From assembly GCA_050084515.1 (NCBI GenBank), contig CM114271.1, forward strand, positions 25,668,001 to 25,732,000: a DNA stretch of 64,000 nt, given 5' to 3'. The DNA comes from Blasia pusilla (Eukaryota). Below the pieces are notes generated by a model. The model was not told where the DNA came from. It saw only the letters and a list, made by a program, of their open reading frames with translations, and did not search any database. The translations under genes and the position numbers were made by a program. Numbering within the stretch: position 1 is the first letter of the stretch; each line of letters starts with the position of its first letter. Shown here one piece after another: positions 1-57,839 of the stretch.

Positions 1-639
1 TCCTGATTGTAACCACGTCAATGTGGCCGATTTGGCGTTGAGTGAAAACTATATAAGTTTGGTTGCCCATATCTATTGTCAAAGGGCTCTTCTTGTAGTG
101 AGATGGATCCTAGGTGGCATTGTTGGTAATATCCTAGGTTGATGTGGCATATTTAGTCCTAGGTGGCTTGCTGCGTCAAAGCGGGCATGGGAGGGAATGG
201 ACACCCGTATAGCATACAAACGTTTGGTGTTTGGTGCCCAAGTAAGGTGTGTTGTGTTTGGCGGGAGAGAGTGTGCACTCGAGTGGGATGGTTGGAGTTT
301 CTCCAAGAGTGGGAAGTTCAAAGATTAGGGGATTGGGGAGGTCAGGAGGCTGAGAACAATTTGTTGTGAACGTTGTGAAGACTTTTACGCCTAGACCGCA
401 AGCTCCGAGTTTCTTCTGAAGACTCTGCTCTCTGAAGATTGTTTCATCTTCTTAGCCGCGGTTAGCTCTCTCTCTCTGTGCCTTTGCGATGTTCTCTCTC
501 TCTTTGCGCAACATCTGGAAGAGCCTTGCAAAATGACGTTCAACTTCTTCTCGGACTTCAAAGATCGCTCCACTCTGCAATGTTGTCTTGCTATTGACCC
601 GAGTATGTCCGAATAGCTTGGTGGCTCCGAAGGTTGAAA

Positions 640-1046
640 CTTCCTACGATGTACCGGTGTTGAAACTAGACCTACACTTTGTCGCACGCGCTCTTCATCT
701 ACAAACCACTCATCGTTCACTTTGCTGACACTCCAGTTGAAGTATCGCAGGAGAATACCAGCTTCAGTCCTTGATAGGGAAAGGAAATTTGTGATTTTGG
801 TCATCGCTTCTTCTTGTCGCTGGCGAATGTCCCTCTCATTGAGAATTGTGTAATTGGACTGAGGAAGCCTAGAACTCACATGAACGTCAAGTAAAGGGAA
901 TCATCGAAACCGTAGTCCGGCTCATCATCGTCATCATCACTGCCCATGGTATTCTCACTCGCCTTGTCGTCCTCTTCATTCATATCATAGAAGTCCCCGT
1001 CTGATGTTCCATACCAAGCATCCTGCATTTCATCTTCGGAGTCCAT
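640..1046 (-). pseudogene. ARIADNE-family RBR E3 ligase 5' fragment (acidic N-terminus + UBA-like region), truncated before RING1
   Basis: ATG at 1046 gives MDSEDEMQDA...DDDDEPDYGFDD. After a frameshift near 885 it reads YTILNERDIRQRQEEAMTKITNFLSLSRTEAGILLRYFNWSVSKVNDEWFVDEERVRQSVGL, resembling plant ARI7/ARI8 N-termini. No RING cysteines follow. Confidence 0.8.
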
Positions 1047-5966: not shown

Positions 5967-7004
5967 CCTCCCACCAAAACCGTCTGGCTCGTTGTAGGAT
6001 CCGATCCCGCTCTCTAGCACCCAGCAACGCGTTGGTACTCCAAGACCACTTCAATCGTGAAGACCATCATCTCCTCACCGGCCTCTGGATCTTAGGACTC
6101 TCCATCATATCTCGCCATCGAAGTCTCAGAAATTTGGCTCTCCATAGCCAACAAGCCCAAATAGGCTGACACATGCCATCCTGGGACCAACTCCTCATCA
6201 CTCTCACCATGCCAACGATCTCTAGTTGCATCTTGCTGACTCGGGCATGGGTTACGGCTCAAACCATCCCATCCTGGTTGAGCGTCCCAAGTCTATGCAC
6301 CACCTAGAAGTCATACTCCAACAACAAAAGAGCCCACCTCGCAAGCTTCCCTGTAAGCTTGTCCGACTCCATCAACCACTTAAGTGGCTGATGATAAATA
6401 ATGATGGTAAAGGGATATGTGACAACCCACACTGCAACCAAGCACTCACCCTCATACGAGCTATACTTTGCCTTTGCAGCGTTGTTCGAGCAACTAGCGT
6501 AAGCCACCACAAACTCTCTACCATCATCGTCATGTTGGATGAGCACGGCTCCAAGCCCCAACATGCTCCAATCGGTATGCAACTGGAAAGGACGCACCCT
6601 GATCGGTCTCCTCAATATGGGCGCGAACGTCAATCTATCCTTGAGCATCTGAAATGCTCACTCCTTCTCATCCTCCCAGTGCCACTCCTGAGCCACCTTG
6701 GTCAGCAAGGTCAGCGGCTTTGCAATCGAGCTAAAACCCTTGACGTATCGTCGATAGAAGTTCGCCAATCCCATGAATGCACAAACTCGACTCACATCTA
6801 TAGGGCGTGGAATGCATGAAATAGCCTCTACCTTCGTCTGCTACACACCAAGGACCCTTGGGTATATCGTTTGACCCAGATACTCAATCTGGTCGTAGAA
6901 GAACTTGCACTTGCCTAGCTATAGCTTCAGCCCACGTAATTGCAATCGTCAAAACACCTCCTCTAGATGTCGCTCATGCTCCTCAACCGTGGCGCTAAAG
7001 ACTA

Positions 7005-7975
7005 TGATGTCAGGTCCATCGCCTGACCCAAGACATGATGTCGTGATGGCTCCAATTGTGATGGTACTAGCTTCACTCCTATGGGGAATCCCATCATTTG
7101 CTCTCGCTCATCGGCGTTGGGCTCCACCAACCTCTGTACCTGGTCATCCCAAACCAAGCCAGGTCCGGCCTCCTTGAATGCATGGGAAGCGGCCTCCTTG
7201 AATACATTGTGAGTTTTCTCGCTTCCCATGCATTGAAGGAGGCCGGACCTGGCTTGCTCGTGGCATGCCAATCCTATTGACCACAGTCAACGGTGGTCGA
7301 TCATCGTGCCTCACTACCTATGATCGACAGCCCGGATCCAATATAGAATCCACCAACAAATAGAAGGGACACTCCACTCTCATGTAAGCCCTCCACAACA
7401 CCTCATGTGGTACCAAGTTGGTCCACTAAAGATGCGGTCGGTGTGCTCTAGAATCTACACTCGCCATATCTAACAACACTCTTGGGCCGATCCATGCGCG
7501 CACTTGATGTGGACTCGTCACCATGCAAGACCTCGAATCGCCCAAAATTGGAAATTCTCCAAAATGCATGGTGGAGAATGAGGCTGATGCTCCTGTAAAT
7601 GTCGCAAGATCCGCATTATCTCCCAAAACAACCTGGACCGAGTGTAAGCTAACCCGCTATCTCATCCAACACTCGATTGGCCCTGACACGACCGACCAGT
7701 AATGACCAAATCTATGGTCCCTACCCGCTCCAAGTCTTGCGCCCTCAACAATAAAATGTCCCTCGGTAGGGAACTTTGGTAACCCTGAATGGTGGACGCA
7801 GACAACAAGTCGGGAAAATGGAGGCGTAACTGCGCCATATGGTGAAGTGAAGCGCGCCTCTCAACATCATCAATCTCCATATACACGTACTGTTGCACGC
7901 GCACTCCAACGTGCAAAAAAGCAACTAAGCCAGTGTTGATCCCTCCAAAGAGATCCAACACCCGAATAGCCTCCT
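7005..7975 (-). pseudogene. E1 DNMT3-like cytosine-5 methyltransferase domain (catalytic PC mutated to SC)
   Basis: IRVLDLFGGINTG, DLVITGRSCQG, HRPHL, EREQMMGF, HVLGQAMDL; frameshifts present. Confidence 0.85.
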
Positions 7976-8622
7976 CTGGGATGCACCACACAATCAGGGT
8001 GGTGTCCAAAGGGGTCATAGCAGCACTCCTGCCTACTTGGGGTTCCTCTGACCCATCACACTCTACGACAGATATCTCGCTCCACGCGGTCTGCACATGC
8101 TCAATGGCTAAGCGTCGAGCCCCAAAGTGGCACCTCTCCTCCACGGACTGATGCGTCTACCATGACACTCCTCTCCATAGACATGTCAAGAATGGGAGTA
8201 TCTCTGCATGGACATGTCCCTCGATCAAATCACTAGGCCAAGTGATGGCACTGCTAAATGCTACTAAGGTCACCATCTCTCCTTACCGTCGCTCGATCAC
8301 TGCACTTGTGAATCGAACGGGTAATGAGCTAAGGCGTCCATCACCTGACTACCATCCTGGTCTGTAGGACGCTGACTCCTCCCAATAATCCAAGGAAACC
8401 CCCATTGGGTATAACACTGCTCCACCATCCAAGACATCGTAGGACTCTACATCAGTCACTATCGCCTTGGCTCGCACCACTGACTCATCTGTAAGATGTC
8501 CCGGGCGAATCCTCACCACGACCTCTTTTCGGGTGATGTACTCGCTCGACTCAAGGATTTCTGTATCCGGAATGGACAACACTCCATATCGGCTCTCGTC
8601 AATCCCAATCCTTTGAATGACG

Positions 8623-8989
8623 TGTCATGACCATACGGATTATGTCGTAGAGTATAGTGTGCTAGTAGAGGCCATTCCTTATGTAGGACCGTAGTGGCTT
8701 GGTAGAGATGCGGTTTCATACATAGGGTTGGGGGTTACTCGAGTTGGGGTGACTTTCCCAGAGGGGCCGCTCTTAGATTGGAGGATATAAGGTGGAGTGC
8801 ACTCAAAGAACAGTCAGTCCTTTGAGTTGAGCCTGTTGCGTTGGGAGTTAGCCTTGGTAGTGAGTAGAGCCCTTGGCTATGGTGTTTCCCGCAAGCTTCG
8901 ACCTAGATTCTCCCATCGTGGAGTGGGTTTGGCTCAATTTTATGTGATTCTTTACATATTTTATGACAGTAGGTCTTTCACGGATTTCA
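8623..8989 (+). repeat. E2 repeat A1 (copy A2 at 17931-18294); contains TATA-like gatataag at ~8784
   Basis: Near-identical direct repeat; both copies end cggatttca. Confidence 0.95.
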
Positions 8990-10733
8990 CTCAAAGAACT
9001 GGAGTAGATCGATGGTAGCTTCGATTGTAGATCAGTAGGATCTGGTTAGGGCTGATTGTGTACTCAGCCGTGGATGTTCGTGGCTTGTGGCCTATGTTGG
9101 AGGTGTGACTCTGGTGCGTGGTTGGTTGAAAAAGAAGCGCCTTGCTGAGAGCTTTCCAATGTGTTTTAGATCGCCGGATTTTGTCAAGGGAGTTGGAAGT
9201 TATCAAGGATTGAAGATTATGGTTCGTGTTCGACGGTTTTCTGATGTGGAGAGCTTGGAGTGCGGAAGCTCTGTTGAAGTTCATCCAGATCGGGTGAGAG
9301 GTTCCTGTTGTTACTTGTATTGTGATCTCATGTGAAGCTATCTGCTGGAGTGTGTGGAGCGTTGCGGATTTCAGCGTGCATGAAACTTGGCGGAAGCGTT
9401 ATCGGATTTGCGATTATGGAGGTGTATGGACAACAAATTTGTCTGATTTTTAGCTCAGAGTACAGAGCTTGATTGTAGCTGATTTTTTGTGGATAGATAG
9501 CTATGGTGGTCAATTGAATTCTGGTTGAAACAAATTTGATTTCGGTCACGGATTTGTGAAGTAATTGCTGATCAAAATTTTGCGGACTAGCTGAAGGTCA
9601 AGCTATGGTGGACAGCGGATCGGAGGGGCTGGTTGGTTGGTGACTTGTTCATTGTTGGAGACGCCTATCCCATTGGGGGCGCCCTGGTTGGGCCTCTCTC
9701 CATAGCGAAGCATGGCGAACGGGGCGATAGGGGCATGTCTCGAGCATTTCGAGGCTTGGAGGCAACTCGTGGTAGCTCGGGGCGAGTGGGCTCGAGAGGC
9801 GGAGTAAGGAGCAAGGAGCAAGCAAGCAAGCTTGCTTGCTTGAGCGTGAGGCAATTTTTGCAAGATTTGGGATTTGAGTGTTGCATAACTGGTCACCCAT
9901 CTTTGGGCTATTCTGCTTGGAGGACGCTTAACTGCTGAGTTCTTAACTATGCCAGTGTACAGACTGTTGTAGCTCATTTGGTGCTATTCGGAGATGTGTT
10001 AGGCGCTTTATGCATCTCAGGTTTTTGGTTGATGTACCTCTAGCGCATAGTACGGTGTAGCCTCTCCATGCAGGTGATATTTTCAGTTGCTGCGAGTTTG
10101 ACTAGCATGTCATCGACCCGCGGCGGAGTAGCTATTGCGTTAGAATTGTGTGGTGGGTTTTGTGGATTCAGGGGGCACCACGTTTGGTGGATTATGTTAC
10201 CTTGATTTCCATTTGCGATTGGAGGATTGTCGTTGGACTTCCTGTGTTTGGATCCCCTCCATCGGTGCTTCTTGCTTGCGCGCCCATTGTTAGGGTTGAC
10301 GCTGATTTCCAGAGTAGTGTTACTCCTGTGTGCTACCGGTAGTGAGGCTGGAGGGATGACAAGTAGACCGTGGGAGGCTTCTTGTGGTGATGACAAGTTA
10401 GGTTGCCTACACCCATAGCTAGTAGAGCTAGAATAGTATAGCGACATCGACGTCACTTGGTTATTTGGTGGTGGTGCGGCATCGGCGTTGGTCATCACGG
10501 AGCTCTCGGGTGGTCTGGTTGGGGACCGTAGTGCGGAGAGTGGTGGTTTCACACGGATTGGATTTAGGTATCGGCTACCTTTTCCACTTCCGACGGTTGA
10601 TGAAGAGGAGGACGAGGGTGTTCCAAACACCGAGTCTTCTACGTTGTTATCGAGTGTTGCAGCTCCATTGATTTGCGACATGGACGGTGGATATGGGGCC
10701 ATGAAGGGCCCACGCGATACTGGTGCAGTGTAA

Positions 10734-11900
10734 ATGGGCACCATTGAGTTGGAGGACTTCATGCAGGAGTTTGATACGTGGTGTGATATGCAAATGTTTG
10801 AACGCCACGTTGTTTACACCCTTCTTGGCTTGGAAGGGTTGTTTGACACTTGGAAGGACCACCCATGGATGATTACCATGAGTTTAGGAAGGACCATGTT
10901 GCTGAGATTGAGGCATGGAGACAATATTGGTCTCCAGGCTATGTGTCTATCACCCATGGTGGTATTGGTAGTAGTGCTCCTACTATGCCAGCCAGCCCGA
11001 CGTTGAGTGGTATGAGTACGAGCCGGAGTGGGGGTACCAGTGGAGGTAGTAGTGGAGGTAGTAGTGGAGGTACTGGTGCCCCACCATCGTTCAGCCCGGT
11101 TGCAGAGTTCTTCAAGAGGTTGAAGAAGAACTATCAGGGAGTGAAGACGGAGAAGTTGAGGAGTCTTCAGGAATTTGAGCGAAAGACTGGTGAGAGTCTT
11201 CGTGAGGCATACACTCGTATGCGACGCTTGATTTCGATTACCAGGGTGTGATCGAAGATCAGCGATCGATTTTGGTATGGGATCTTGGATAGAGATTTGT
11301 GCCGTAGGGTACGTGATGCTACTCTTATGAGTGATGATTCACCCACATTGACCCATGTGTTTGCTCTATCTGAGAAGATTGAGCTTAACATGGTGAAGGA
11401 GAGAGTGGTGACATCCGCATTCAGTAGGGATACAAATACTACTTCTTGTGTTCAGTAGCCCACCTCACAGTCTCGTAGTAGTGGTGGTGGTAGTAGTAGT
11501 GGGAGTCGTGGGGGTACACGACCGACCTCCAGTCCTAGAGGACACTTGCGCAGAGACCATTGCCTTCATTTGCTGCCCCGCAGCAGGGCGATCATGTTGG
11601 ACATGTGGAGGTGATCATGTTAGGAAGTTTTGTCCCCAAGAGGATGGGAGACGGACTTTGGAGGATGGGCCTCAGTCGGCCCCAACTCAGCGTGATCATT
11701 GCGGGAGACCAGGTTATCCTCGAGAGCGTTGCTTTGATCTTCATCCAGAGTTGAGATCAGGCCGCGACCATGGTGGAGTAGCTCCGAGAGGCCGAGGTAG
11801 TAGAGGTGGTAGGGGTGGTAGAGGTGGACCAGTGGTTGGAGAGCCTACGGTGGCTACCCCTACCACTACGACAAAGTCGCTATGGCTTTCAGGATTGAGC
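10734..11900 (+). pseudogene. E2 Gag with two zinc knuckles
   Basis: GTIELEDFMQEFDTWCD, FERKTGESLREAYTRMRRL, CWTCGGDHVRKFC, and (C)DHCGRPG(H)PRERC; frameshifted. Confidence 0.85.
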
Positions 11901-12499
11901 GATTGGAGCAGTTGGCTACTATGGTGGTATCCAAAGATAGATCGTGTTGGGAGCAGGGCTTCCACCTCTTATGGAGGGGATGATCTCTCTTATATGGCGA
12001 GAAAAGATGAGTTGAGGCATCAGCTGCGATTCTGAGGAGCCACTCGGCGTGAGCCACGTGGTGCTCTTGGGAGTTGGACCCACAGAGGGGTGAGGCCGGG
12101 AGGCGGGCTAGGCTTCCCTAGTCATTCTTGTTGTGCGAGGTGCTTAGGACTCCATCCATGGTTCCTCGCAGCCTATTGAGAGCAGTGGGGACCGAGGCAT
12201 CTAAATCGCGTGTAGTAGACACGGATGCAGCATCCAGTGCAATATTGCAGATGGCAACTTTAGTGTTGGGATCCCCATTGTTTTCGGCCACGGAGCTGAT
12301 GGCTTTAGGAGTTGACTTAGCTCCTGTATTTCAGCAAGCAGCCACGTTGTGTGAACGTGGGGGTGTTACTGCTACACGTGTTGAGATGGATGAGGGTGTT
12401 GCGGTGGAGCGACCCTCTATGTCAGGTGTAGCATTGAGTACCAGTGCTACTTGGCAGGCAGCAGCGGTGAAGATGGATGCATTACCAGCCCGGCCAGCC

Positions 12500-12970
12500 A
12501 TTGATCATGAGAGGCTTACACCTGGTGTATGTATGTTGGACAACCGGAGTGGGATCTTCCGATTGGTGAGTCCTACAGGACAGGTGTATAGACCAGATAG
12601 AGTCTTGTTAGACTCTGGTGCCCAACCTTTGATGTTGGGAAAGGCGGCATATATTGGTTTGGGTATCCGGAGGTCAGAGCTTGAGCCTTGCCCATTCTAG
12701 ATTCAAACCTCACTTGGAGGAGCCAATGATAGGTCTCAATTCATGACACGGGAGAATTTTCTGTACATTTGAGACCAGATCATGCGACTGATAGCTCCCG
12801 GTTGGGAGTATCTGCGGTAGTCACATCAGCCGAGTCGTATGATGTACTAGTTGGAGGAGCAATATTGTACCCGATGGGTTTTCAGATGGATTAGTGGACT
12901 GAGACAGCGTCTTATAGACCTGGTTGGCAGTCCGGGATGGACGTATGAGCCAAGTTCCTGTGAGATTTAT
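12500..12970 (+). pseudogene. E2 aspartic protease
   Basis: RVLLDSGAQPLMLGK and ESYDVLVGGAILYPMGF. Confidence 0.85.
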
Positions 12971-13332
12971 TTATGGGGCTCGACCGAGGAGGGTCTACAC
13001 CAATAGTGTTAGCATCTGTGGCTGGTTTTAGTGGAGTAGTCACTTGGCCAGGAGACTTTTTGGAGGGTAATGTTTCTGCTATGGATTCTCCTGCGCATGA
13101 GGAGATAGAGGAGGTCCCTATTTTTGCAGCGGTGGCATCCTCATTGTTAGATGTGCCACTTTGGAGTTCAGGCGGTGCACTATGGCAGGAGGCTGATCGC
13201 CTAGTGCAGGAGGCTTGGTGTGAGGTTGTTATACCTCACGAGGAAGAGGAGGCCCCACGGCGGACTCCTACTTTTGGTCCAGTTGGGTTATCCCCTTTGG
13301 ATACTACACCCATTGTATGGCAGTATCCGCTA

Positions 13333-14285
13333 GAGGGCATTTGTGTGTTAGATCTCTTTGGTGGGATTAGCACGGTTTGGTCGATGTTGCAAGCCGGTAT
13401 TCTGTCTTGGAGATACGTGTATGTGGAGCGAGATGAGACGGCCCAGAGAGTCTCATCCCGACATATTGGTCAGTTGATGCAGAGATATCCTGAGTTGTTG
13501 CCGCCATCAGCTATTCGTGGGTACCAACGTGCTTTGCCGTCACACATTGCATTGTTGGGGGCGCACGACCTTGAGAGGGTTGGTCCTGTGGATTTGGTGA
13601 TTGTTGGATGGCCATGTCAAGGTCATACACGTGTAGGTCGTGGTGAGGGATTACACGACCCTAGGTCTCGATTGTTTTGGGAGATGTTACGGGTGTTACG
13701 ACATCTTGAGTTCATCAGCACGTGCTCGGCTTACATTCGTCGAGAATGTTCCATTGTTGGGTGACACTTGGACCCAGATGATGGCGAGTGTTCATGAGGT
13801 GCGGTCTTGGATTGGACCAGTGGTGTTGTTGGATGCAGCGCGAGTTGGCTCGCATGCACATCGTCCACGCTTGTGGTGGATAAACTTGTTGCCTAGGGAG
13901 GTTCTACGTCGAGCATATGATGCAGTGCAGCGGGATCCTTGCCTTACCGTGGATAGTATCTTGGATACTGGGCAACTTTCTCAAGTGGTGAGGGTTATTG
14001 ATCGGTCACCCATGGCAGTGGTGAACCGTGTGGGCCAGCCTAGGATGGCACTACCCACATTTGTGAGTTTTCCCTTGTCACATGCCTACAGAGAAGGTGG
14101 TCCGGGGCTTGTATTGGATTCTCATGTGCGACAATTGGTGGAGCCTAACGCTGATAAGAGAGAGCATGCAATGGGATTTGCTACTGGTGTGACAGCGGTT
14201 GCTTCTATTTCTGAGGCTTCACGACGTCATGTGTTGGGTCAGGCCATGGACCTGAATTGTTTGACTTGGATTTTGAGTCTTGGTA
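13333..14285 (+). pseudogene. E2 DNMT3-like cytosine-5 methyltransferase domain within pol
   Basis: Motif I VLDLFGGIST, motif II YVERD, motif IV DLVIVGWPCQG, SRLFWEMLRVL, motif VI ENV, motif VIII DAARVGSHAHRPRLWW, motif IX REHAMGF, motif X VLGQAMDL. Confidence 0.92.
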
Positions 14286-14619
14286 TGGCGCTTAGCGGCT
14301 CAACCGGACTATGTCGTGGGTCTTCCACCCCTTGTAATGAGCTCGATGGCTACCGGGGCCGGTAGAGGCATCGGTGGGGCAAGGAGAGTAGTATTTTGCA
14401 TCCTTGGAGTAAATGGGATGTAATGGGGGCATGTGGAGTTGGTTGCTCATCTTTGGTGGAGGAGTTATTTGCTCGAGATGATGGTGTAGCTAAGGGTGTA
14501 CCATCTTGTGAGGGGGTTGCGTAGCAGCCAATGGCATCGTCCTCTCCTTCTAGTGTGCCAGTGGAGGAGACTTGGGAGCCATTACTTGAGCCCAAGCTTA
14601 CGGGAGGTGAGAAACGACG

Positions 14620-16000
14620 CTTGACAGAGTTCCTACGTGCTTATAGGAGTTGTTTTGCCTTTAGCATGAAGGAGTTGGGTTCTTTGGTTGTACCCGGTAT
14701 ACGGATTGATTTGGCTAGTGATACACCAATCTTCCGTCGTCCCTACCGATATAGTGATATAGAGAGGGACCTGATTCAGAGTAGGACGTTGGACCTTTTG
14801 GAGGATGGATTAGTGGAGTTGTCGCATGGAGAGTATGCATCAGCCACTATCATGCCTGCTAAAAAGGATATGCATGGCAACTACACGGATACGCAGATGT
14901 GTGGAGATTACCGTCCTATCAATCGGAAAACCAAGGCCGATAGGTATGCCATCCCTACACCTGAGGAGATCTTTGATGTGTTGGGACAGGCAAAGATTTT
15001 TAGTACTTTGGATCTTCGGGCAGGATACCATCAATTGCCGATTCGGGAGAGTGACAAGGCCAAGACAACATTTTGGGGTGTCAACTCTCATGGCAAGGAT
15101 TGTTTGTACCATAGGAAATTCTTACTCTTTGGGTTGAAGAATGCACCTGCCGAGTTTCAGAGAGTGATGGACAGGATCCTAGGAGGGTTGGATTTTGTTC
15201 GGTGTTACATTGATGATATCTTGGTGTTCAGTAACACGGTGGAGGAGCATCAGATACATTTGCAGATGGTGTTTGAGCGGTTGAAAGCTCATGGTCTACG
15301 TTTGCATCCAAGAAAGTGTAAGTTCTTCCATGAGGATGTTGAGTACTTGGGTCATGTGATCTATCCAGGTGGTTTGGGAGTTCAGCAAGCAAAGGTGGAG
15401 GCTATTGCACTTATTCCGCGTCCGGTAGATGTGAGTAGAGTTCGGGCATTCATGGGATTGGCAAACTACTATCGGAGGTATGTGAAGGGATTTAGTGCTA
15501 TGGCAAAGCCTTTGAACCAATTGCTGAAATCAGATCAAGAGTGGCACTAGGGAGATGATTAGGAGAGAGCTTTTGTGGAGCTTAAGGCCCAGTTGGTGGC
15601 GGCGCCTATCTTGAGGAGACCTATCAGAGGGCGCCCATTTCAGTTACACACTGATTGGAGTAGGTTAGGACTTGGAGCGGTGTTGACACAACATGATGAT
15701 GAGCACATGGAATTTGTGGTGGCCTATGCAAGTCGTTCGAATAATGTAGCGGAGTCGCGCTATAGTTCATATGAGGGAGAGTGCTTGGCAAAGAGTGTGT
15801 GGTTGTGGCACACTTTAGGTGTTACTTGTTTGGCACAGTTTACCCTTGTTATTCGATCATCAGCCGCTCAAGTGGTTGATGGAGTCGGACAAGCTTATAG
15901 GGAAGATCGCACGGTGGGCTCTTATCTTACAGAGTATGACTTCCGGGTGGTACATAGACTGGAGTTGCCAACCTTGATCTTTGATGGGTTGAGTAGGAAC
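14620..16000 (+). pseudogene. E2 reverse transcriptase + RNase H (Ty3/Gypsy type)
   Basis: MCGDYRPIN, FSTLDLRAGYHQL, FGLKNAPAEFQR, YIDDILVFS, FQLHTDWS..GLGAVL, AYASR. Confidence 0.95.
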
Positions 16001-16229
16001 CCATGTACTAGCCAAGAGGATACAACTGGGGCTAGATGGCATGGCGAGGTTGATGAGGAGATGGTGCCAGGTTGGCATGCATCCGCCTTTTTATGTTGGT
16101 TAGGGGTGGACTCTAGTATGGAGGATCACATGATATCTTACTCTAGTCAGAGGATAGATGGCTAGCCTTCAGATCCTAAGGTTGGAGATGGTGGTACGGA
16201 TCAGCGTGATATTCATGATGATGCGTTGG

Positions 16230-17649
16230 TGTTGGAGTTCCTACCGACCAGTAGGGTGCCAGGCATAGTGAGTGCCAAGGAGCGAGACCGTGTTCTTCAA
16301 CGTGCTAAGAGGTATCGATTGGAGGGAACACATATTCTCCGCGTGTGGGAGGATGGTAGAGTACAAGTAGTGCCACATTTGGCTCAGAGAGAGCGTATTG
16401 TGCGACATGCCCATGAGGTGTTCGGACATTTTGGGGTAAAGCGTACGTATAGCTTACTCCTTGGCCAGTATTGGTGGCGTGGCATGCATACTTAGGTGCA
16501 GCAGTTGGTGTCACGTTGTATGGTTTGTGACCGGGTGAGGGCATCATTCAATGCCCCTACACCAGAATTACACCCCTTTCCTATTATGGGGTTGGGTTAC
16601 CGTTGGAGTGTGGACTTTGCGGGACCGTTACCGTTGACTGTACGACATCATCGATATGTGTTGGTGATGGTGGAGCACTTCTCCAAGTGGATTGAGTTGG
16701 TGGCATTACCGGACAAGGCAAGTGAGGGAACGACATATGCGTTTCTTGATAGAGTGCTTAGTCATTTTGGTGCACCAGCTGAAGTGCTGACCGACCAGGG
16801 TACAGAGTTTCAGGGTGAGTTTCAGGTCTTGTGTGACAAGGCGTTGATTGATCATCGGACCACGTCTCGAGATCATCCAGAGGTGGATGGTTTGGCTGAG
16901 CGTGTGGTTCGATGATGAAGAGGGCATTGCGCAAGTATGGCCTATAGAAGGGGCATCTTGGAGACAGGATATTCGATTTGCCATGGTTAGCCATGGGGTA
17001 TAGGTTCAGTCGCCAAGCATCCTTGGCTTCCTTCTCACCTTATTTTTTGTTATACGGTTGAGATCCAGACTTGCCAACAGCAATTCGTCGGGAGTCTAGT
17101 GAGGTGGTGAACCTTGATGACCTAGAGATGTGGATGAGAGTGTGTTCTCGGCCAAGGCGAGCTCTTCGGAGAGTTATGCCAATGACCTTTGAGAATCTTG
17201 CCATTGCTCAACACAGGGATACGTTGCGGTATGCAACCATTCGGGGTGGAGGTTATCGACCATCGATTCGTAGGTTCCATGTGGGGGACTATGTCTATTT
17301 GCAGCAGATTGCACCGACAACGTTGGATGTGACGGCCGGCCGCACTATTTTACGAGTGCGCGAGGTGTTAGCTTCTGGAGTTCTCATGTTTGAGGGTCGT
17401 GATGGAGTTGTTTGGAAGGACCATGTGCGTAATTGTGCACCATGTCATCTTCCAAATATGGATGGTAGTGTTGACCCAAGCTTAGCCATGATACGCGCTA
17501 GCTTGAGGTGCATGTTGTGTGGGTCTGCTGGTAACGCAACCCGTATGTTGGTGTGTGATCGGTGTTCTAGGGGTTGGCACATGATGTGTTTGACTCCACG
17601 TATGGATGTTATTCCTACTGGAACGTGGGTTTGTCCTCGATGTACTTAG
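16230..17649 (+). pseudogene. E2 DDE integrase with C-terminal PHD finger (17509-17643)
   Basis: HAHEVFGHFG...CMVC (HHCC), WSVDFAGP, LTDQGTEF, GLAER; ends CMLCGSAGNATRMLVCDRCSRGWHMMCLTPRMDVIPTGTWVCPRC (C4HC3). Confidence 0.93.
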
Positions 17650-17822
17650 GAGAGGTAGATGACTTGATCTTTGCATGATATGAATTACAGATGTGCGACT
17701 AACGATGGGGCAACCTAGCACCCGGCCTTCTGATTCGGGCACCCAAGAAGGTGTATAGCATGTAGTAGATGTATAGGGCTACCTGGGAGTTAGAGGGACC
17801 TAACCGCCAATTAGGGGGGCGA

Positions 17823-18400
17823 GTTGTGGTACACTTGTGTTTGTGGATACTCTCGTCTATGTTATGTATGTATGTGAGTATGGTATGTCAGCGATGTATG
17901 TTGTATGACGATGTGGATTCGCACGACAGTTGTCATGACCATACAGATTATGTCGTAGAGTATAGTGCGTAGAGGCCATTCCTTATGTAGGACCGTAGTG
18001 GCTTGGTAGAGATGCGGTTTCATACATAGGGTTGGGGGTTACTCAGTTGGGGGTGACTTTCCCAATAGGGCCCGCTCTTAGGTTGGAGGATATAAGGTGG
18101 AATGCACTCAAAGAACAGTCAGTTCTTTGAGTTGAGCCTGTTGCGTTGGGAGTTAGCCTTGGTAGTGAGTAGAGCCCTTGGCTATGGTGTTTCCCGCAAG
18201 CTTCGACCTAGATTCTCCCATCGTGGAGTGGGTTTGGCTCGATTGTATGTGATTCTATACGTGTTTTATGACAGTAGGTCTTTCACGGATTTCAGTTGTG
18301 GTACACTTGTGTTTGTGGATACTCTCGTCTATGTTATGTATGTATGTGAGTATGGTATGTCAGCGATGTATGTTGTATGACGATGTGGATTCGCACGACA
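17823..18400 (+). repeat. E2 3' end: B1 (17823-17928) + gt + A2 (17931-18294) + B2 (18295-18400), preceded by PPT aggggggcga
   Basis: B1 and B2 are both 106 bp and essentially identical. Confidence 0.95.
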
Positions 18401-21400
18401 GACGCTTTCCCCAACATCAGGGGTTGCGCTCCTGAATCCAACAAGACGCGTTGCAGACTAAAAGCTCTACCTCCTCGACTCACCAGCAGGAAGACCTCTC
18501 CTTGGTTATCCAACAAAAAAACATGAGGAGATGCCATGGCGCGCTCTATCGCGGGTCTAGCGGGCATCTCCGCCATCCTAGCACCCAAGCCTGCCATGAA
18601 TCTAACGTGGACGGCCCGAGCATTAGCTCCAAGGGCAGGTCCATCACCTCCTTTGCAATCACCTCTGAAGGTGATGCAGGAACTCCAACTCCACGCTCAC
18701 ATAGCGTAGCGGCCAGCCAAAAAACCTTGGCGGACGTACCTCCCAACGTCATAACATCAGACGCAAAAAATAAAGGAGCACGGTACACAATGGTGGCCGC
18801 CCCCAACAACGTGCTTGACACATGCTTACATTCACTTCTCTCATCGCCCTCCGTGCCTCCACACCAACAACATCACCAACTCTCCATGAACTTTGATGAG
18901 GACCTATCGATGGGGTCCTCATCGCCTTGGACAACGTGAAAGACTGAGGAAGCCTGGTTTGTTTCTTGGCGTCCCCTCGCTATGGATTCAACTTTGCAAC
19001 TGCTCCACGCGTCACAATTGCAGCGGCCTCCATCTGGGCAACCCCACACATCCAACCAAGATCCTCCATATCTCTGGCTGCTCCATATGATGTCAATGCC
19101 ACAGATCTGGCATCGGGTAACCTTAATGCCATAGCGGCAATCTACTCATGTAGTTGTTGTATCTGAGCACCCATCCTAGCCTCATGCCCGACATCTTCCT
19201 CAACGCATCTACATGTTGGGACTCTACCTCCTCCACGGGCAACTCCACCACCCTGTCGGGCAACTCCAACTCCTTGTCCCTTAACGGGACCACATGGTGC
19301 ATAATCTGTAGGCCCACCCAAACCAGCTACTCGCCCTATTGCCCTCTTTGGCCCTCGGTCTGGACGTAACTCAAGGTGTAAGCTGAAACACCTGGCGCAT
19401 GTGTGACCATACCTCTGACAATAGTCACAGTGATAACCTCCTTGTGCAGCACCATCTCCTCTTTCATGCTGAGGCATACGTCCATGACCCTGACGAGTGC
19501 AATCGCACTGATGATGGGCTCCACCATATGACCAACATGTCATTGTAGGTGGCTGCTGTTGAGCCGCATATGAAAGCGCACGTCTCTGTGGCACAGCCTC
19601 CCGATATCCTCCTTGAGCTTGTGGTGCCATATATAGTCGACCTATCTCGGAGTCTAAGTTGTTGCACAAGTAGTACAGAGAATCGTGATTGCTCTCGCCC
19701 AGAACCCATGATGGCTACGCTCTCCTCCGCCATGTTGCGCTCCTAAAAATATCTTTGAACGTAGGGGAGGTGTTCATAAGAAGCACCCCTCTCGCACCTG
19801 TGTCCGTAGGGTCGAGTCCAACATCGCGTACCATGACTGGATAGCATGAGCCTTTGTCACCCCCTGAGTGACGTTGATCAACTGGCGCAAGCGAGTGTAA
19901 GCCTCACAAAAACTCTCACCCGGACGCATGTGGAAGTCGTGGATGCTCCGCAACTTCTCTGTCCATACCCCTTGGTAGTTCGTCCTCAACTCAGCAAAAA
20001 ACTCAACCACGGGGTTGAACCTAGGACAAACCCGACTACACGGTGAATTGCTCCAATGCGAGTTACCCCTCCTAAAACATTGGAAGAGGAAGAAGCCTCT
20101 CCTCACTCCTCCTCCTCATCTGGGAACGGCTCCGTCCATGACACATAGTATGGGTCATAGTAGAGTCGCCATGCCTTAGTCTCTTGGGCATATCTGTGGG
20201 AGAACTCATGGTAATTGTCCATGGGTGCCTCCTCTAAATGCTGGAACATACCGTTCCATGCTGTAAACGGGTTGAACTCTCTAGAGTTCCTAGCCCGCTG
20301 TGAGTCGTGCCAACTTCTAAACTCCGCGATGAAGTCGTGCAACTCTATCGTGCCTACTACACGTGAGAACCTACGTGGTCTTATCCCCTGGTTGTCCATC
20401 TCTTACGCCCAAGCAGTAGGACTACTCAATGTGAGTGGCAAAGCACTACTCAACTTCTCTACGCCCTCCTCCTCTTCTGAAGATGACACAGAAGGAGGTG
20501 AGGTGGTCCCTCACGTGGAGACCCTTGAAACCTCGCACCACTCCAAGTAAACCCTCCAGAGCTACTCTCTGGTCCACTACCTTGCCTCTCAAAATTCTGA
20601 AAGGACGTGGTGATGGCCCTCGTGCCCCTCATGCCCCTCTCACACGATCACTCCCAATCTCGCGAGTAATCCCTCAATCACTCAAACTAAAGATACGGCA
20701 CTCAATCTACACTCTCTCACTAAGACGTGTGTTCTGCGGCAACAAGCAGCGTGGTACGGCAAATCAACTGATCTATCGTCTTATCGACAAACCATCCTCA
20801 ACTTTGGACATCCCACACAGGTCTATGTCCCCTTAATCCATACATCATCGATGCTCTCAGCATCAGCACAAAACCCAATATCCCAAATAACTTCCCAATA
20901 CCCGAAAATCCCTCACACGTGTAGGGTAAGAGACCAGAATGGGTAACCTGACAATAATGTCGATGTCCCTCCTCGTCAACTATAAATCTCGACCCCAACC
21001 TGGTCGTGAAGACAACTCCTCCAATGAGCAAGTCGTACTCCTCTCGTATTGACGCTGCTCAAACCTCCTCGATGTGCACTGCAAGTCCAGCGGTCCGGTG
21101 CGGCACCAGCGGCACGGAACGGCTACAAATGGTAGGGGCTACGGCACTCGAAGGCATACCCTCCTCAATCAGAAATTCACACGCTCTGCTCCTTAGTGAA
21201 GGAGCAGCTCCACGATTGAGATGGTGTAGTGCGGCCACGAGCCGCACGGCGTGGCAATCGGCGGTGCGTTGCGGCTACGGGCATCACGGCACGAAACTCA
21301 ATCTTCGTCGAGCGGTTACGAATCACAACATAGCAGCATGAAATGAAAACTCAAACACCATTATCCGAGATCACCTGCCATGACTGGTTGATGACAAAAT

Positions 21401-22088
21401 TGCGATGACGGTGGCGGCTAAAACAAAGAATCAACGGTCGTCGTGGAAGACCCTCCACTCCGTAATGGCGGCAATGGCAACCAAGTGTGGACAATGGCTG
21501 AACGCGGCTTTGAGCAGCGCTAGGCGGCGATGGAGGCCGAAGGTGGACCATTGAAGGAGACGGTTGACCATTGATGGTGATGGTGGACCATTGACCATTG
21601 ACCGTTGACGATGACTTTGACGGCACAGCGGCTAGTTTAGGGTTTCAACAATTTAACCCTAAAAATCGCCTTGCAATGGAAATTTTTCAAGATTGACCAT
21701 AACTTTTTGCTTGCAACTCCAAATGCTACTATCTTTAGGTTTCACATCATTGAAAAATATTTTAACCCTAAAAATTTGTAGTAAATCCCAACGCTACATA
21801 AATTTTGGCAACGCTCGCACTAATTTCTCCCAATAAAATGTGCTTCCGCAGCACCGGCATGGGGCAACCTGCCTCCATACTCAATCCCTATCAAAAATTG
21901 GGTAGCGCTTTTGCGCGCCACTCTTCCACACGAAAAATTGGCGAAGGAAACATCACAAGTAAGCGGTTCTTGCTCCGGTGCGTACTCCCATCAACCGCTG
22001 AATAGGGAATACAATCCCCAACCTACAAAACTAGCAAGTGACTAGCGAGCTCCTCGATGAACTCTCTTACTCACTCATTCTCTCTTTG

Positions 22089-22591
22089 TAAAATAAGATC
22101 CAATATCTCTCGCAACACCATAGTTCTCACATGTGTGCACTCTCACAATGTCAAACCAAACCCACTCTCCTAATGAGAGGATTGGGTTACACTCACAAGG
22201 CAAGAGACTGTAGTTCCGCCGCCTTGTCCCAAGAGGTTCAACAAAGAGAGAATGAGCTCTCAAGCTCTCTCCTTGAGGTATACCCCTCCCCTCTCCCAAG
22301 CTCTTTCCATGGTAATCTATGCTCCCAAGTCACCTCCTTGGATCTTGACCTGATGTAGGATGTCAAGGGCCACTTACCAAAAATAGAAAGTTGATCATAT
22401 ACTCAAAATGGTACTTGCCTAAAATAGTAAGTTTCTCAATATGGCTCCAAATGAACCGAAACGAAGGGGAAACCTGCTCTCTCAGATTTCTCGGGGCCTC
22501 AGTAGGTCATCTTCTACCTCCTGAGTCTGTCCTCCACTACTTGAGAAGACGTTCTACTAAATCTCACCGATCTATCCTAAAAGACATGACA
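22089..22591 (-). repeat. E1 repeat A1, homologous to the E4 A repeats
   Basis: Reverse complement aligns by eye with 52811-53324. Confidence 0.9.
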
Positions 22592-22713
22592 AATGTCTTA
22601 AAATCAAAGAAGATTGGAGGCCAAACTCACAAGAGGTGAAAATTGGAAGTATTACCTTAGCCTCTATTAGAGGAGAATCTCTACATAAAATAACGTACTA
22701 TGAGTTGACAAGT

Positions 22714-33670: not shown

Positions 33671-36600
33671 GCCCCCCTAGCTGGCAGTTGGATCCTCCCA
33701 ACTCCAGATAGAAAATATCACATCTCTCTAACATGACCTACTACCCTATACACATCTCGGACACATCCATCGTTCCGTGGGAACCATATCAAGAGGGGGG
33801 TCAGACATGATATATGCCACCCTTGAGAACAACCATCACATACCAACATGGTGGTTGGACCCCTCGCAGATCCGCACAACATACACCTCAAGCTTGCACG
33901 TACCACTACCAAGCTCGGATCCACCGTCCCATCTACGTTCGGAAGATGACATGGCGCACAATTGCGCACATGATCCTTCCAAACCATACCATCCCGTCCC
34001 TCCAACATGAGGACTCCGGTCGGTAATACCTCGCGCACACGTAGGATCGCGGCGCCTGCAGCGATGACATCTAGCGTCGTGGGTGCCGCTGCTTTGTAAA
34101 TACACGTAATCTCCAGGATGAAACCTCCTAATCCCTGGACGATAACCTCCTCCACGAATGGTCGCGTACCTCAATGTATCTCTATGCTGGGCAATAGCTA
34201 AGTTTTCAAAGGCCATAGGCATAACTCTACGAAAAACTTCTGCCCTCTGAGAACATGCTTGCACCCACACATCTGGATCATCAAGATCAAACACCTCCGC
34301 CATGACACGTCGAATCGCTGCAGGTAAATTTGGCTCTCTCCCAAAGAGCAAAAAGTATGGTGAAAATGACGCCAAGGATGCCTGCCGACTAAAGCGATAA
34401 CCCATAGCCAACCATGGCAACTATAGGTCCCACTCCCTCAACTGTCCCCGCTGCAAGCCATACTTGCGCAATCCTCTCTTCACCGTCTGTACCACTCTCT
34501 CCGCCAACCCATCCGCCTCAGGATGATCTTTGGACGTGGTGCGGTGATCTATCAGCTCCTGATCACACAAGGCCTAAAAACTCTCCCCTGAACTCGGTAC
34601 CCTGGTCAGTCAACACCTCCGCTGGTGCACCAAAGTAACTAAGCACACGATCTAGAAACGCATAAGTTGTTCCCTCGCTCGCCTTGTCTAGTAGTGCCAC
34701 CAACTCTATCCACTTGGAGAAATACTCCACCATGACCAACACGTACCTATGATGACGCCCTGTCAATGGCAAAGGTGCCGCAAAGTCTAAACTCCACCGA
34801 TAACCTAAACCCATAATCGGCAAATGATGTAACTGCGGAGTGGGAGCATTGAAGTATGCTGGCACTCTGTCACATACCATACATCTGGCCACAAACTGCT
34901 GTACCCCAGTATGCATGCCGCGCCACCAATACTGGAGTAAGCTGTAAGTACGCTTTACTTCGAAATGTCCCAACTCCTCATGGGCATGTCGCACTACACG
35001 TGCTCGCTGGGAAGGATGAGGTACCACTCGTATCCTACCATCTCCCCATACCCGCAAAATGTGAGTCCCCTCCCACTTGAACCTCTTGGCTCTCTGTAGG
35101 ATCCGATCCCGCTCCCTAGCACTCACTGTACTCGCAATGACGCCAATGCGCAAGAACTCCACAACCTCCACGTCGTCATGGATATCACGACCACCTGTCG
35201 CCTCCTCACTAACCTCCAGATCCAACCCCACCACTGGAGTCATCACCTCTGGCTGACCTGCCATAGTCAACCAACAAAGATAGGCAGATGCATGCCAAGC
35301 GGGCACCATCTCCTCATCACTCTCTCCGTGCCATCGAGCTCCTCTGTCGTCTCTCTGACTCAGACATGGGTTACGACTCAACCCATCCGCATCCTGGTTC
35401 AGCCGACCTGGCCTATGAACCACCTCAAACTCATACTCCTGTAGTAATAGAGCCCACCTGGCAAGCTTTCCCGCAAGCTTGTCGGACTCCATCAACCACC
35501 TCAACGGTTGATGATCAGTGATAAGTGTGAAAGGGTTGCCGAATAAATAGCACCTAAAATGTGCCACGGCCCACACTGCAACAAAGCACTCTCCCTCGTA
35601 GGAGCTGTACTTTGCCTCTGCAATGTTGTTCGATCGGCTCGCGTAAGCCACAAAAAACTCCCTCTGAGTAAGCACTGCACCTAGACCCAACATGCTCCAA
35701 TCCGTATGTAACTGGAATGGACGACCCCTAACCGGTCTCTGTAAAATGGGTGAGGACATCAACCTGTCCTTGAGCTCTTGAAATGCTCGCTCTTGATCAT
35801 CTCCCCACAACCAAACCTGATCAAGTCTCGTCAACAAGGTCAAAGACTTTGCGATCGCACTAAAACCCTTGACATACCGTCGATAGAAGTTCGCCAGTCC
35901 AAGAAATGCTCGGACTCGACTCACATCTGTAGGGCATGGAATCTGTGCAATAGCCTCTACCTTCGTCTACTGAATGCCTAACCCACTCGGGTATATGGTG
36001 TGTCCCAAGTACTCAATCTGCTCCTAAAAGAATCTGCACTTGCCTGGATGTAACTTCAGTCCATATAACTGCAATCGCCGAAAGACCTCCTCCAAGTGTC
36101 GCTCATGCTCCTCAAACGTGGAACTGAAGATAAGAATATCATCTATGTAACATCGTACAAAATCCAAGCCAGCAAGAATCCTATCCATCACTCTCTGAAA
36201 CTCTACAGGCGCGTTCTTCAACCCAAATGGTAAGAACCGCCACTGATACAAGCAATCTCTCCCAAACCGATCTATCCCCGAGAATGTTGTCTTCTCCCTG
36301 TCCTCCAACCTGATAGGAAGTTGATGATAGCTAGCACGGAGATCTAAAGTAGTGAAGATCTTTGCATGCCCTACTGCATCAAAGATCTCCTCAGGAGTAG
36401 GCATGGCGTACCGATCTGACCTCGTCTGTCGGTTGATAGGACGGTCATCTCCACACATCCGCCTATCCGTCCAATTGCCATACATATCCTTCTTCGCCGG
36501 CATGATTGTGGCAGATGCATACTCCCCATGTGATAACTCCACAAGTCCTGCCTCCAACAAGTCTTGACTCCTGCTCTGAATCAAGGCTCGCTCCATATCA

Positions 36601-41254: not shown

Positions 41255-41685
41255 TCGAATGGGGGGCATCGGCCCCCATTCGAGGGGGGCATCGGCCCTT
41301 GGCCCGTGCTCCCAACTTGCGGGAGAACAACGGAGGGAGGGGAGGGCCCGCGGCCCTATGCGGCCCTCCCCAAGTGCGCGGAAAGGGAGGGGGCGTCGGC
41401 CCATGGCCCGTGCTCCCAACCTGCGGGAGAACAATGGAGGGAGGGGAGGGCCCGCGGCCCTATGCGGCCCTCCCCAAGTGCGGGAAAGGGAGGAGGGGGG
41501 GGCCGTCGGCCCTTGGCCCGTGCTCCCAACCTGCGGGAGAACAACGGAGGGAGGGGAGGGCCCGCGGCCCTCCCCAAGTGCGGGAAAGGGAGGGGGGGGA
41601 GGGGGTAAGGGTCCGCGGCCCTATGCGGCCCTTGTAAATGTGCGGGGTGGGGGAAGGGCCCTCGGCCCTATGCGGCCCTTGTAAC
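41255..41685. repeat. GC-rich tandem repeat (~3 x ~110 bp plus partial units) in the E3 5' leader
   Basis: Unit ggcccgtgctcccaacctgcgggagaacaacggagggaggggagggcccgcggccc... Confidence 0.9.
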
Positions 41686-49547: not shown

Positions 49548-51204
49548 CATGTAGATATCAGCACGGATAAGGGAATCTCATAAGTGAACAAGGTTTTGTT
49601 GCTACCATGGCCGGAAGACTTGTACCAATTACACATGACACGGCAAATGCTTCCCTTCTGTCCAAAAGGAGGTACGGACATATGCATGTCCATCAATTCC
49701 AAGGCCCTACGACGTCTTGACCAATGCGTATCATTCTTTTGAATGAAAAACACAATACGTCCCAACCAATAATCCTTTTTTGCAACTCTTGCCTCCACTA
49801 CAAGTCTCTTTTCCCTTCCTTTTCTTTGACTTTGTTGATCTTGTGGAAGGGCCAACATCAAGTGTAGATTCAAACAAAACTGGGATATCACTACCAACAT
49901 CAACTAAACAAGTTGGCCAATTAGGATCATGATCCTTTCCCTTGCCCTCGTAATTTACAGTAGGCACTATTGAATGGGGAATCACCTTAGTAGTCAAGTC
50001 AATTGAATACTGCAGTTGAGTGCTTGTTCGAGGTTGGCGCATGGTGGCATTACAAGAGGTAGTCGCATGGTGGCTCCAAGGAGATGCACATGATTGCAGC
50101 AGAGCAATGGTAAGGAGAGGAATATTTTTGTTGGGCGCATTAGGTTGCAAATATCTCTCTTTCACGACCAAATTCGATTTTCCCCACGACCAAATGTGAG
50201 AAAAGAGAGAGAGAGGTCACATGCTTACCTAAATCAACCTCAAAACAAGAGGGTGGACAACAATAAGCCAACAAATGCCAAACAATGGTGAACCAACTTC
50301 AACAATAAGCCGAAAATGATAGACATACACGAACGATTCCAAAGAAGCACAGTCCGTCCGTCCGAGGTTTCAGTATCGCAAGATGTAGATCCCATTGAAA
50401 AAAAAGAACGCCTTGAGCTACTTCACGAGCTGCTTCACAAGTAGGTATTAGTTACCACGGATCAAAGAAAGCTTTTCAACATATCTGCTATTCGTGAAGA
50501 ACTCAACAGAGGATTGATCAAAGCTTGCTCGATCGTGAAACCTCCTTACAACCCTTCTGCAACTTACTTGCAAGCTCCTCTTCCGAGTGGCGGCTATTCA
50601 TCTTTTCTTGGAAGGTTTTCCCTTAAACCCAAACCCGATTCAAATCTACTCGGGAGAAATAATGGGAAAATGGTTGAGGGAGGAAATCATTTTTAAAAAA
50701 ACTATCTTTTTCCCTCTAAATTTCCCTGCAAAGAACCAAAGAATTTCCTACCTAGGGAGGATAATCATAATTAAATTTGGAATAAAAATAAATAAATTTT
50801 ATGTAATAAATATGTATTATATTTTTTTTGAGTATTAATCCTATCTTATGTGAACGTCTTCCATGGAAGGGCAACTAATATAAAGACCCTATTGTTCATT
50901 TAAGAGCGCCATGGAATAAATTGAACCCTATTGTTCTTCCACGAAACTTAATAAGTCTTCTGAGGGACGCAATTAAAAAAACCCCTTACTTTGTCACACG
51001 TGATGGGGCATATTTGTGGAAGTGAGACCCCCTAGAATATTCCAATTATTCCAAATATGGACTTTTTGACTATTGGTAGTCTACTCATAAGGTATATGTA
51101 TCTAATTTTATGTAAGTATAGTTGTGTGTTAAACCATGTATTAAACCACGATTTGTATGTTGACCTATTCTTTATTTTGTAAGGCCTTCAAATGACGATA
51201 GAGT

Positions 51205-51410
51205 AACAGTGGGACAAAATCAAGGAGCTTACATGGAGGACGTTTATATATCGCCAAGGCTTGAGAATGAGGATGGAGTAAGAGAGGGAGAAAATCAAGG
51301 AGCTGACATACATGACATTTACATATCGCCAAGGCTTGAGGATGGAGTAGTAGGTGGAGAAAATCAAGGAGCTCACACAGAGGACATTCATATATCGCCA
51401 AGGCTTGAGT
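51205..51410 (+). repeat. Three 60-66 bp tandem coding repeats upstream of the Helitron Rep
   Basis: G(Q/E)NQGA...D(V/I)(Y/H)ISPRLE x3. Confidence 0.85.
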
Positions 51411-57400: not shown

Positions 57401-57839
57401 TTTTCCTTGGATTACTCGGAGGATTCAGCGTCCTACAGACCAGGATGGCAGTCAAGTGATGGGCGCCTTAGCTCATTACCCGTTCGATTCACAGGTGCAG
57501 TGATCGAGCAACGGTCAGGAGAGATGGCGACCTTAGCAGCATTTAGCAGTGCCATCACTTGGCCTAGTGATTTGATTGAGGGACATATCCAAGCAGAGGA
57601 TACTCCCGTTCCTGACATTTCTATGGAGAGAAGTGTTATGGTAGCTGCATCATTCCATGGAGGAGAGGTGCCGCTGTGGGGCTCGACTGAGGAGCTGCAA
57701 CGATTGGCAGATGAGCACGTGCAGACTGCGTGGAGCGAGGCGTTTGCACCAGAGCGTGACGGGTCTGAGGAACCCGAGGTAGCAGGGAGTGCTACGATGA
57801 CACCCTTGGATACTACACCCATTGTGTGGTGTACCCCGG

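Follow-up and report, generated by a model that had tools for sequence, protein, structure and literature searches.

The window analysed here is a stretch of 64,000 nucleotides from Blasia pusilla (contig CM114271.1 of assembly GCA_050084515.1), and comparison of the window with itself revealed four related retroelements of approximately 9.7-10.3 kb, here called E1 to E4. Every complete copy (E2, E3 and E4) shows the layout A1-internal-B1-NN-A2-B2, where A is a repeat of 363-517 bp, B a repeat of 107-139 bp and NN a 2-nt spacer. Element E2 occupies positions 8623-18400 of the plus strand (9778 bp), with A1 at 8623-8989, B1 at 17822-17928, A2 at 17931-18293 and B2 at 18294-18400, and it is flanked by the target-site duplication (TSD) GACG at 8619-22 and 18401-04. 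Element E4, also on the plus strand, covers 52811-63119 (10309 bp) with A1 at 52811-53324, B1 at 62345-62472, the spacer at 62473-74, A2 at 62475-62991 and B2 at 62992-63119, and has the TSD GCTT at 52807-10 and 63120-23. On the minus strand, E3 runs from 42608 to 32922 (9687 bp) with A1 at 42608-42134, B1 at 33670-33532, the spacer at 33531-30, A2 at 33529-33053 and B2 at 33048-32922, flanked by AATA at 42612-09 and 32921-18. The fourth copy, E1, is a relative of E4 on the minus strand (6072-22591) which the insertion of E2 has split into 18401-22591 and 6072-8622; its A1 is found at 22591-22089, and since it is truncated at its 3' end at position 6072 it contains no B1/A2 junction. The sample thus consists of three complete copies and one truncated copy, all degenerate with broken reading frames and all from one 64-kb window.

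E1 and E4 are 81-88% identical, while E2, E3 and E4 are mutually identical at about 73-76%. Within each copy the internal and outer repeats are far closer, at 95-100% identity: A1 and A2 differ at 19 of 367 positions in E2, 17 of 513 in E4 and 24 of 475 in E3, and the corresponding figures for B1 and B2 are 0 of 107, 3 of 128 and 15 of 139, where 12 of the 15 differences in E3 belong to a single deletion. The unevenness in E2, with identical B repeats and 19 differences between the A repeats, exceeds that of E3 or E4, and gene conversion is one possibility for it. In all three complete copies the 4-bp TSDs directly abut the termini TGTCA.. and ..CGACA. E2 is inserted in E1, which is related to E4, and the empty site of E2 can therefore be read in E4, where the uninterrupted target AATGACGCTTTCC is continuous at approximately 57171-74 and contains the GACG that is duplicated around E2. 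The nesting also shows the family inserting into its own relatives. A Helitron_like_N match (E 2.5e-24) at 63122-63439 (+) starts directly after the 3' end of E4, and a Helitron may therefore have been the insertion target of E4. No Helitron domain was matched by the ORF upstream of E4, which yielded only a weak, below-threshold match to DUF4847 (E 0.035); because no matching Helitron half lies upstream, the TSD of E4 is read from its 4-bp repeat only.

Outside and between these landmarks the window contains an ORF with an ARIH1-type UBA-like domain at 394-900 (-), probably a host gene fragment, beside which the self-comparison showed a tandem repeat with a 6-nt period at 1166-1361. Two further tandem arrays were seen, a 104-nt unit present three times at 41285-41602 in the 5' part of E3 and a 73-nt unit present three times at 51193-51409 in the spacer before E4. 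The G+C content is 49-59% in the elements, with a strong strand skew, and 36-46% in the intervening DNA.

The Pfam domains come in the order gag, C5 DNA methyltransferase, RVT_1, RNase H, Integrase_H2C2, rve and a C-terminal PHD finger. The pol order was read in both E2 and E3 as Retrotrans_gag (weak, E 0.005), RVT_1, RT_RNaseH, Integrase_H2C2 and rve, the rve domain matching with E 3e-15 in E2 and E 2e-10 in E3. The closest solved relative is the Ty3 Gag-Pol structure 7q5b (E 1e-33), and the integrase of PFV was matched too. In the E3 integrase the first two catalytic Asp residues align with Ty3, and the Glu lies beyond a frame break in these degenerate copies. The methyltransferase upstream of the reverse transcriptase (RT) and the PHD finger after the integrase are located at 12964-13761 (+), 17062-17646 (+), 61850-62161 (+) and 33721-34170 (-); the PHD finger stands where chromoviruses have a chromodomain. 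PF00145 is matched by the E2 ORF at 12964-13761 with E 1.2e-5, and the DNMT-homologous region is present in E3 and E4 but without a Pfam match there. Relatives of the DNMT region gave 22 matches, about half of them in Marchantia with 52-65% identity and others in Calypogeia and Sphagnum; 18 of the 22 carry PF00145, and some share a protein with RT/RNase H. The nearest proteins come from liverworts (Calypogeia 71%, Riccia 73% and Marchantia 75% over a part), and further relatives occur in Closterium, mostly at approximately 40-50%, and in Klebsormidium, at approximately 40% over the RT-integrase region. That relatives at 40-73% identity exist in Klebsormidium, Closterium and liverworts speaks for a maintained layout.

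With respect to their pol order, their TG...CA termini and their 4-bp TSDs (3 of 3), the elements are of the Ty3/gypsy kind, yet the two identical LTRs expected at the very ends of such an element are absent and no B precedes A1. Only one complete B-NN-A repeat is found per copy, B occurring only as B1/B2 pairs. The split direct repeats with the termini abutted internally are a feature of DIRS elements, from which the copies differ in two respects. DIRS-order elements are not known to form TSDs on their conservative insertion, nor PAT-like and Ngaro elements to lose spacer bases, whereas 4-bp TSDs are present in all three complete copies here, and a search for a tyrosine recombinase (Phage_integrase, E<=0.001) found none in the 111 ORFs of at least 100 aa in the whole window. 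The elements, with their C5 methyltransferase domain, are of the Gypsy-DNMT3 type, Ty3/gypsy-like in enzymes, termini and TSD and DIRS-like in repeat layout.

The sequence-only reading of this DNA had claimed that the right end of the element is joined to its left end at each B1/A2 boundary, and direct reading of the three complete copies bears this out: the right terminus ..CGACA abuts the left terminus TGTCA.. in each of them. In E2 the junction (17925-17935, plus strand) consists of GACA at 17925-28, the spacer GT at 17929-30 and TGTCA at 17931-35; in E4 it consists of GACA at 62469-72, AC at 62473-74 and TGTCA at 62475-79, also on the plus strand; and in E3, on the minus strand, of AACA at 33535-32, GC at 33531-30 and TGTCA at 33529-25. 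The AACA at the end of B1 in E3 is a G to A change, and B2 of the same element retains CGACA. A constant spacer length had been proposed as a check, and the spacer is exactly 2 nt in 3 of 3 complete copies (GT, GC and AC in E2, E3 and E4, respectively), the truncated E1 having no 3' part and therefore no junction to score. The claim that the two spacer bases are missing from the integrated ends also held, as the termini are set independently by the abutting 4-bp TSDs in all three copies.

As a bare motif RACANNTGTCA is not rare in the window, where it was found 5 times against an expectation of 1.65; a count of 5 was also reached by 6 of 100 shuffles. What places the junction beyond chance is that the motif coincides with repeat boundaries and with TSD-defined termini in three lineages only about 73-76% identical. 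The conserved 23-mer at the end of B occurs six times, each time in B1 or B2 of E2, E3 or E4, with 0 expected. Of the five RACANNTGTCA matches the remaining two are an unrelated site at 29654-64 and the 5' flank of E1, where host DNA at 22587-22597 (-) places GACA-TT before TGTCA and so mimics a junction, with no B-like sequence ahead of it. The flank of E3 likewise has a GACA 4 nt upstream, and these flanking GACA sequences could be due to chance or to a weak target preference. The last ~45 nt of B (17885-17928, 62429-62472 and 33575-33532 (-)) show much stronger conservation between lineages than the other parts of B or the start of A, and include two AGCGATGTRT-like motifs approximately 17 nt apart which, judged by their sequence, are possibly sub-terminal protein-binding sites. 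Beyond TGTCA the left and right ends are not symmetrical.

A composite of this kind could in principle be two elements, a short A-B element of ~470-645 bp that repeatedly came to lie beside an A-internal-B element, or it could be the product of rearrangement after insertion or of faulty assembly. A2-B2 alone does have both termini, as such an explanation demands. The same composite with the same 2-nt gap is nevertheless found in three independent insertions of diverged lineages, the 4-bp TSDs flank the whole composite rather than A2-B2, and the internal and outer repeats match one another within each copy to the extent given above, so that we give this explanation almost no credence. The coincidence of boundaries, the TSDs of the composite and the identity of the repeats were likewise the grounds on which chance, tandem insertion and assembly artefact were rejected as sources of the junction.

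To the left of B1 in every complete copy lies a sequence resembling a polypurine tract (PPT). In E2 this tract, TAGGGGGGCG, is found at 17812-17821 (+) and ends exactly where B1 begins, and its counterparts are at 62335-62344 (+) in E4 and 33679-33670 (-) in E3. All three complete copies thus have the conserved tract at the 5' border of B1, and in none does it adjoin A2. The sequence TAGGGGGGC is present three times in the 64 kb, where the expectation is 0.39; all three occurrences end 1-2 nt before B1, and the sequence is the sole strongly conserved block upstream of B; with 7 purines the G-tract is short for a PPT. Just upstream of it stands an inverted repeat (17783-17811, 62306-62334 and 33708-33680 (-)), which reads GTTAG..CTAAC in E2 and E4 and GTTGG..CCAAC in E3, one pair being changed on both sides. 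A hairpin 5' of B1 was set aside as evidence, RNAalifold giving a different, weak fold with a covariation of -0.66 for three sequences of 50 nt.

At the other end of the internal region, the sequence following A1 starts with AC.. instead of TGG and is not conserved between lineages, on which grounds a tRNA-type primer binding site (PBS) was rejected; ARAGORN found no tRNA gene in the window. What is found at this position in all four copies is complementarity to a segment within A. The candidate self-priming PBS of E2, ACTCAAAGAACTGG at 8989-9002 (+), pairs with positions 192-205 of A1 (8814-8827) at 13 of 14 positions, and that of E4 at 53324-53339 (+) pairs with 53148-53163 at 16 of 16. In E3 the candidate at 42130-42117 (-) pairs with positions 304-317 of A1 at 14 of 14 positions including 2 G-U pairs, and in E1 (-) 17 of 17 positions are paired, pairing being counted throughout over consecutive positions anchored at an invariant GT/AC. 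The candidate PBS starts at the last base of A1 in E1, E2 and E4 and 3 nt after A1 in E3, and its partner segment ends 151-162 nt before the end of A in all four copies. Since the paired sequences differ among the lineages at most positions, the pairs have been kept by compensatory change. The duplex energy beats that of shuffled sequences in 300 of 300 cases for E1 and for E4 and in 299 of 300 for E3; for E2 the energy alone is not significant, 102 of 300 shuffles being as good. The same long-range helix was found independently by RNAalifold; the MAFFT alignment misplaced the segment of E3. A search for exact self-complementarity picked up only the 16 nt of E4 and an 8-mer in E2; the pairing in E3 was not recovered by it.

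In E2, E3 and E4, the copies in which the distance was counted, a TATA-like box precedes the paired segment by 23-34 nt, and a comparable box is found in E1. Complementarity and covariation of the PBS are thus present in 4 of 4 copies, around a predicted RNA 5' end. The geometry is that of self-priming of the Tf1 type, and going by it the RNA would start at the paired segment and serve as its own primer. E2 also has, within A, an 11-nt duplicate of its PBS sequence (ACTCAAAGAAC), placed 8 nt 5' of the segment that pairs (8800-8827 (+)), and the RNA 5' region of this element could form a local hairpin that competes with the PBS pairing.

If the PPT-like tract before B1 and the candidate PBS after A1 are the primer sites, the LTR in the sense of reverse transcription would be B-NN-A. 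The ends of this unit carry no conserved TG/CA, as B starts with AGTTG.., ATTGG.. or GTTGT.. and A ends with ..ATTTC, ..ACTTT or ..TTATT. The integrated element contains what such a two-LTR cDNA would contain, less one NN, in circularly permuted order. On this reading of the primer sites the A2/B2 boundary would be the place where the U5 end met the U3 start, and the CA-NN-TG palindrome the point at which the DNA was opened. The joint at 18287-18300 (+) in E2 reads ..GGATTTC/AGTTGTGG.. with no extra bases and one ambiguous A; it is equally exact in E4 (again with one ambiguous A), and in E3 approximately 4 unmatched bases (33052-33049) lie at the joint. Fusion of the predicted cDNA ends at A2/B2, together with element termini that each correspond to one half of CA-NN-TG, would be the expected outcome of joining the ends and then cutting the palindrome.

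These observations can be put together in a cycle of five steps. Transcription would start in A1, approximately 25-30 nt after the TATA box, and the first 14-17 nt of the RNA would fold back on the site just after A1 and prime the minus strand in a Tf1-like manner. The plus strand would start at the G-rich tract before B1, and ordinary strand transfers would then yield a linear B-NN-A-internal-B-NN-A molecule. Its free ends (the start of B and the end of A), being without TG/CA, would not be substrates for the integrase and would join, either as a 2-LTR circle or in some equivalent head-to-tail pairing of LTRs, creating the A/B joint. The DDE integrase would then nick each strand 3' of CA, 2 bp apart, in one of the ..CGACA-NN-TGTCA.. 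palindromes, and the DNA would open as A-internal-B-NN-A/B with recessed CA-3'OH ends and 2-nt 5' overhangs. Concerted strand transfer at positions 4 bp apart would finally produce the 4-bp duplication, the NN overhangs being lost in repair. The internal site would accordingly be a heritable copy of both integrase attachment ends, and we consider a joined-end cycle of this kind to be a fairly probable account of the family, which suggests insertion from DNA whose ends have first been joined and not from free linear ends.

The staggered cut within double-stranded DNA had already been proposed in the sequence-only reading, partly from the missing dinucleotides. Dinucleotides that are absent from the proviral ends and kept at the PPT/U3 and U5/PBS borders are found in any LTR element, and are not diagnostic by themselves. 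The proposal draws its support from the PPT-like tract, the self-priming PBS and the permuted ends; that is, we infer a cut of both strands by the integrase from the permutation of the PBS- and PPT-defined cDNA ends relative to the integrated ends.

The same features bear on a canonical pathway, in which an unrecognised route of reverse transcription yields a linear cDNA already bounded by NN-TGTCA...CGACA-NN, the integrase carries out ordinary 3' processing and the internal junction is nothing but the RNA-borne template. To our knowledge linear cDNA is used in all characterised Ty3/gypsy and retroviral integrations, and the removal of 2 nt after CA, the 4-bp TSD and the retention of the dinucleotides at internal LTR borders would all be ordinary. 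Such a route would, however, need a primer site beyond B2 for the right end, which is host DNA, and the PPT-like tract precedes B1 and not A2. In addition, B2 follows A2 on its right-hand side, so that the U5 end runs directly into the U3 start, and the preference for joined ends is founded here, because we were unable to devise strand transfers by which B would come to lie on the right of A unless the ends were joined. We therefore regard the canonical pathway as unlikely.

A further possibility is a DIRS- or Ngaro-like route, where a single-stranded cDNA is circularised at B2/A1 by means of the B1-NN-A2 bridge, made double-stranded and opened at that junction by the DDE integrase, which would stand in for a tyrosine recombinase. 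It ends in the same staggered cut of the junction, and the layout of the repeats does match that of PAT-like and Ngaro elements as described in parts of two published sources (PMC7192593; PMC5890265). On the other hand it would require transcription through B2 into host DNA, and it leaves unexplained that the end of A is a covarying PBS and the start of B a G-tract in every copy; we judge it quite improbable.

For the joined-end cycle a search for other products is informative, since a circle with two identical junctions predicts A/B-NN-A-internal-B insertions, a permutation that would not be viable, and one-LTR circles predict A-internal-B. Neither was found among the four copies (0 of 4) when the window was searched with the B-end motif. 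Four of four copies of one permutation have a probability of 1/16 under a 50:50 choice, which is not yet significant. It also counts against the cycle that the joint and the PBS offset of E3 differ by a few bases and that the pairing of E2 is weak in terms of energy. In retroviruses 2-LTR circles are generally regarded as dead-end products, and the old model of integration from the circle junction was abandoned. If true, the cycle would be a natural working example of a joined-end pathway with a retroviral-type integrase, and it would account for a layout that the 2018 description recorded but did not explain, while linking the architecture of DIRS elements to a general logic.

A broader version of the proposal, for which we would put the chances at a little under even, is that in a Ty3/gypsy lineage extending from Klebsormidium to liverworts the attachment site has moved into the LTR, so that the lineage depends on a joined-end substrate of the 2-LTR-circle type and on a DDE integrase that makes a restriction-like 2-nt staggered cut. 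Split direct repeats would, on this moved-attachment-site reading, be a general genomic signature of circle integration inside the LTR, reached convergently in retroelements with tyrosine recombinases and with DDE integrases. Liverworts are suitable for testing the proposal, as genetics, sequencing of extrachromosomal DNA and integrase biochemistry are feasible there. In practical terms LTR-finding software will mis-annotate such elements, taking A1 and A2 for the LTRs, leaving B2 outside and missing the PBS and PPT at the expected borders.

Among systems with DDE enzymes, the insertion sequences IS3, IS30 and IS21 have a transposase that acts on abutted ends 2-4 bp apart, and the junction is the reactive donor. 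Their copy-out/paste-in pathway is DNA-only, without reverse transcription, and the spacer is derived from flanking DNA. The parallel with IS3/IS30 drawn in the sequence-only reading is therefore kept as an analogy only, since the enzyme in Blasia is of the Ty3/gypsy type.

The nearest published relative is KnitGypsy-Dnmt3 of Klebsormidium, which has a Dnmt3-type C5 methyltransferase inside a Gypsy pol, as found here, and for which the legend of Fig. 4c gives a DIRS-type repeat structure with typical Gypsy domains (PMC5890265, main-text parts). Those main-text parts contain no junction sequence, spacer, TSD, PBS/PPT mapping or mechanism (PMC5890265), and in a literature search covering few subscription journals we found no published mechanism for the layout beyond this 2018 legend. 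The repeat layout is thus already in print, and as far as these searches show, the anatomy of the junction, the TSDs, the mapping of PBS and PPT and the mechanistic reading are new. PAT-like and Ngaro elements share with the Blasia elements the A1-internal-B1A2-B2 layout and an internal junction with both termini, and integration from a circle has been proposed for them (PMC7192593, in the part consulted). They use a tyrosine recombinase, in contrast to the predicted DDE integrase, the 4-bp TSDs and the lost 2-nt spacer found here.

With respect to priming, the closest likeness is to Tf1/sushi and Tcn1 elements, whose PBS is complementary to the 5' end of their own RNA and not to a tRNA, self-priming having been predicted for the plant Tcn1 clade (PMC6317226, in part). 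In Blasia 13-17 positions are paired in 4 of 4 copies. The likeness is one of PBS geometry, and Tf1/sushi and Tcn1 elements have ordinary identical LTRs with terminal TG/CA, unlike the Blasia elements.

The closest biochemical precedent for the proposed opening of the circle is the PFV integrase, which in vitro cuts a CA-AT-TG LTR-LTR junction on both strands and leaves 5' AT overhangs (PMC1180852, in the portion consulted). The PFV junction thus has the CA-NN-TG form with a 2-nt spacer, and the overhang ends are identical to 3'-processed ends (PMC1180852); in Blasia the corresponding cleavage is one that we infer. In PFV the palindrome arises when U5 is joined with U3, and what it does in vivo is a matter of debate. 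In the Blasia elements, on the other hand, the palindrome is encoded inside the LTR, in U3, and is copied from the RNA, while the putative U5/U3 joint at A2/B2 is separate from it and non-palindromic, and need not be precise.
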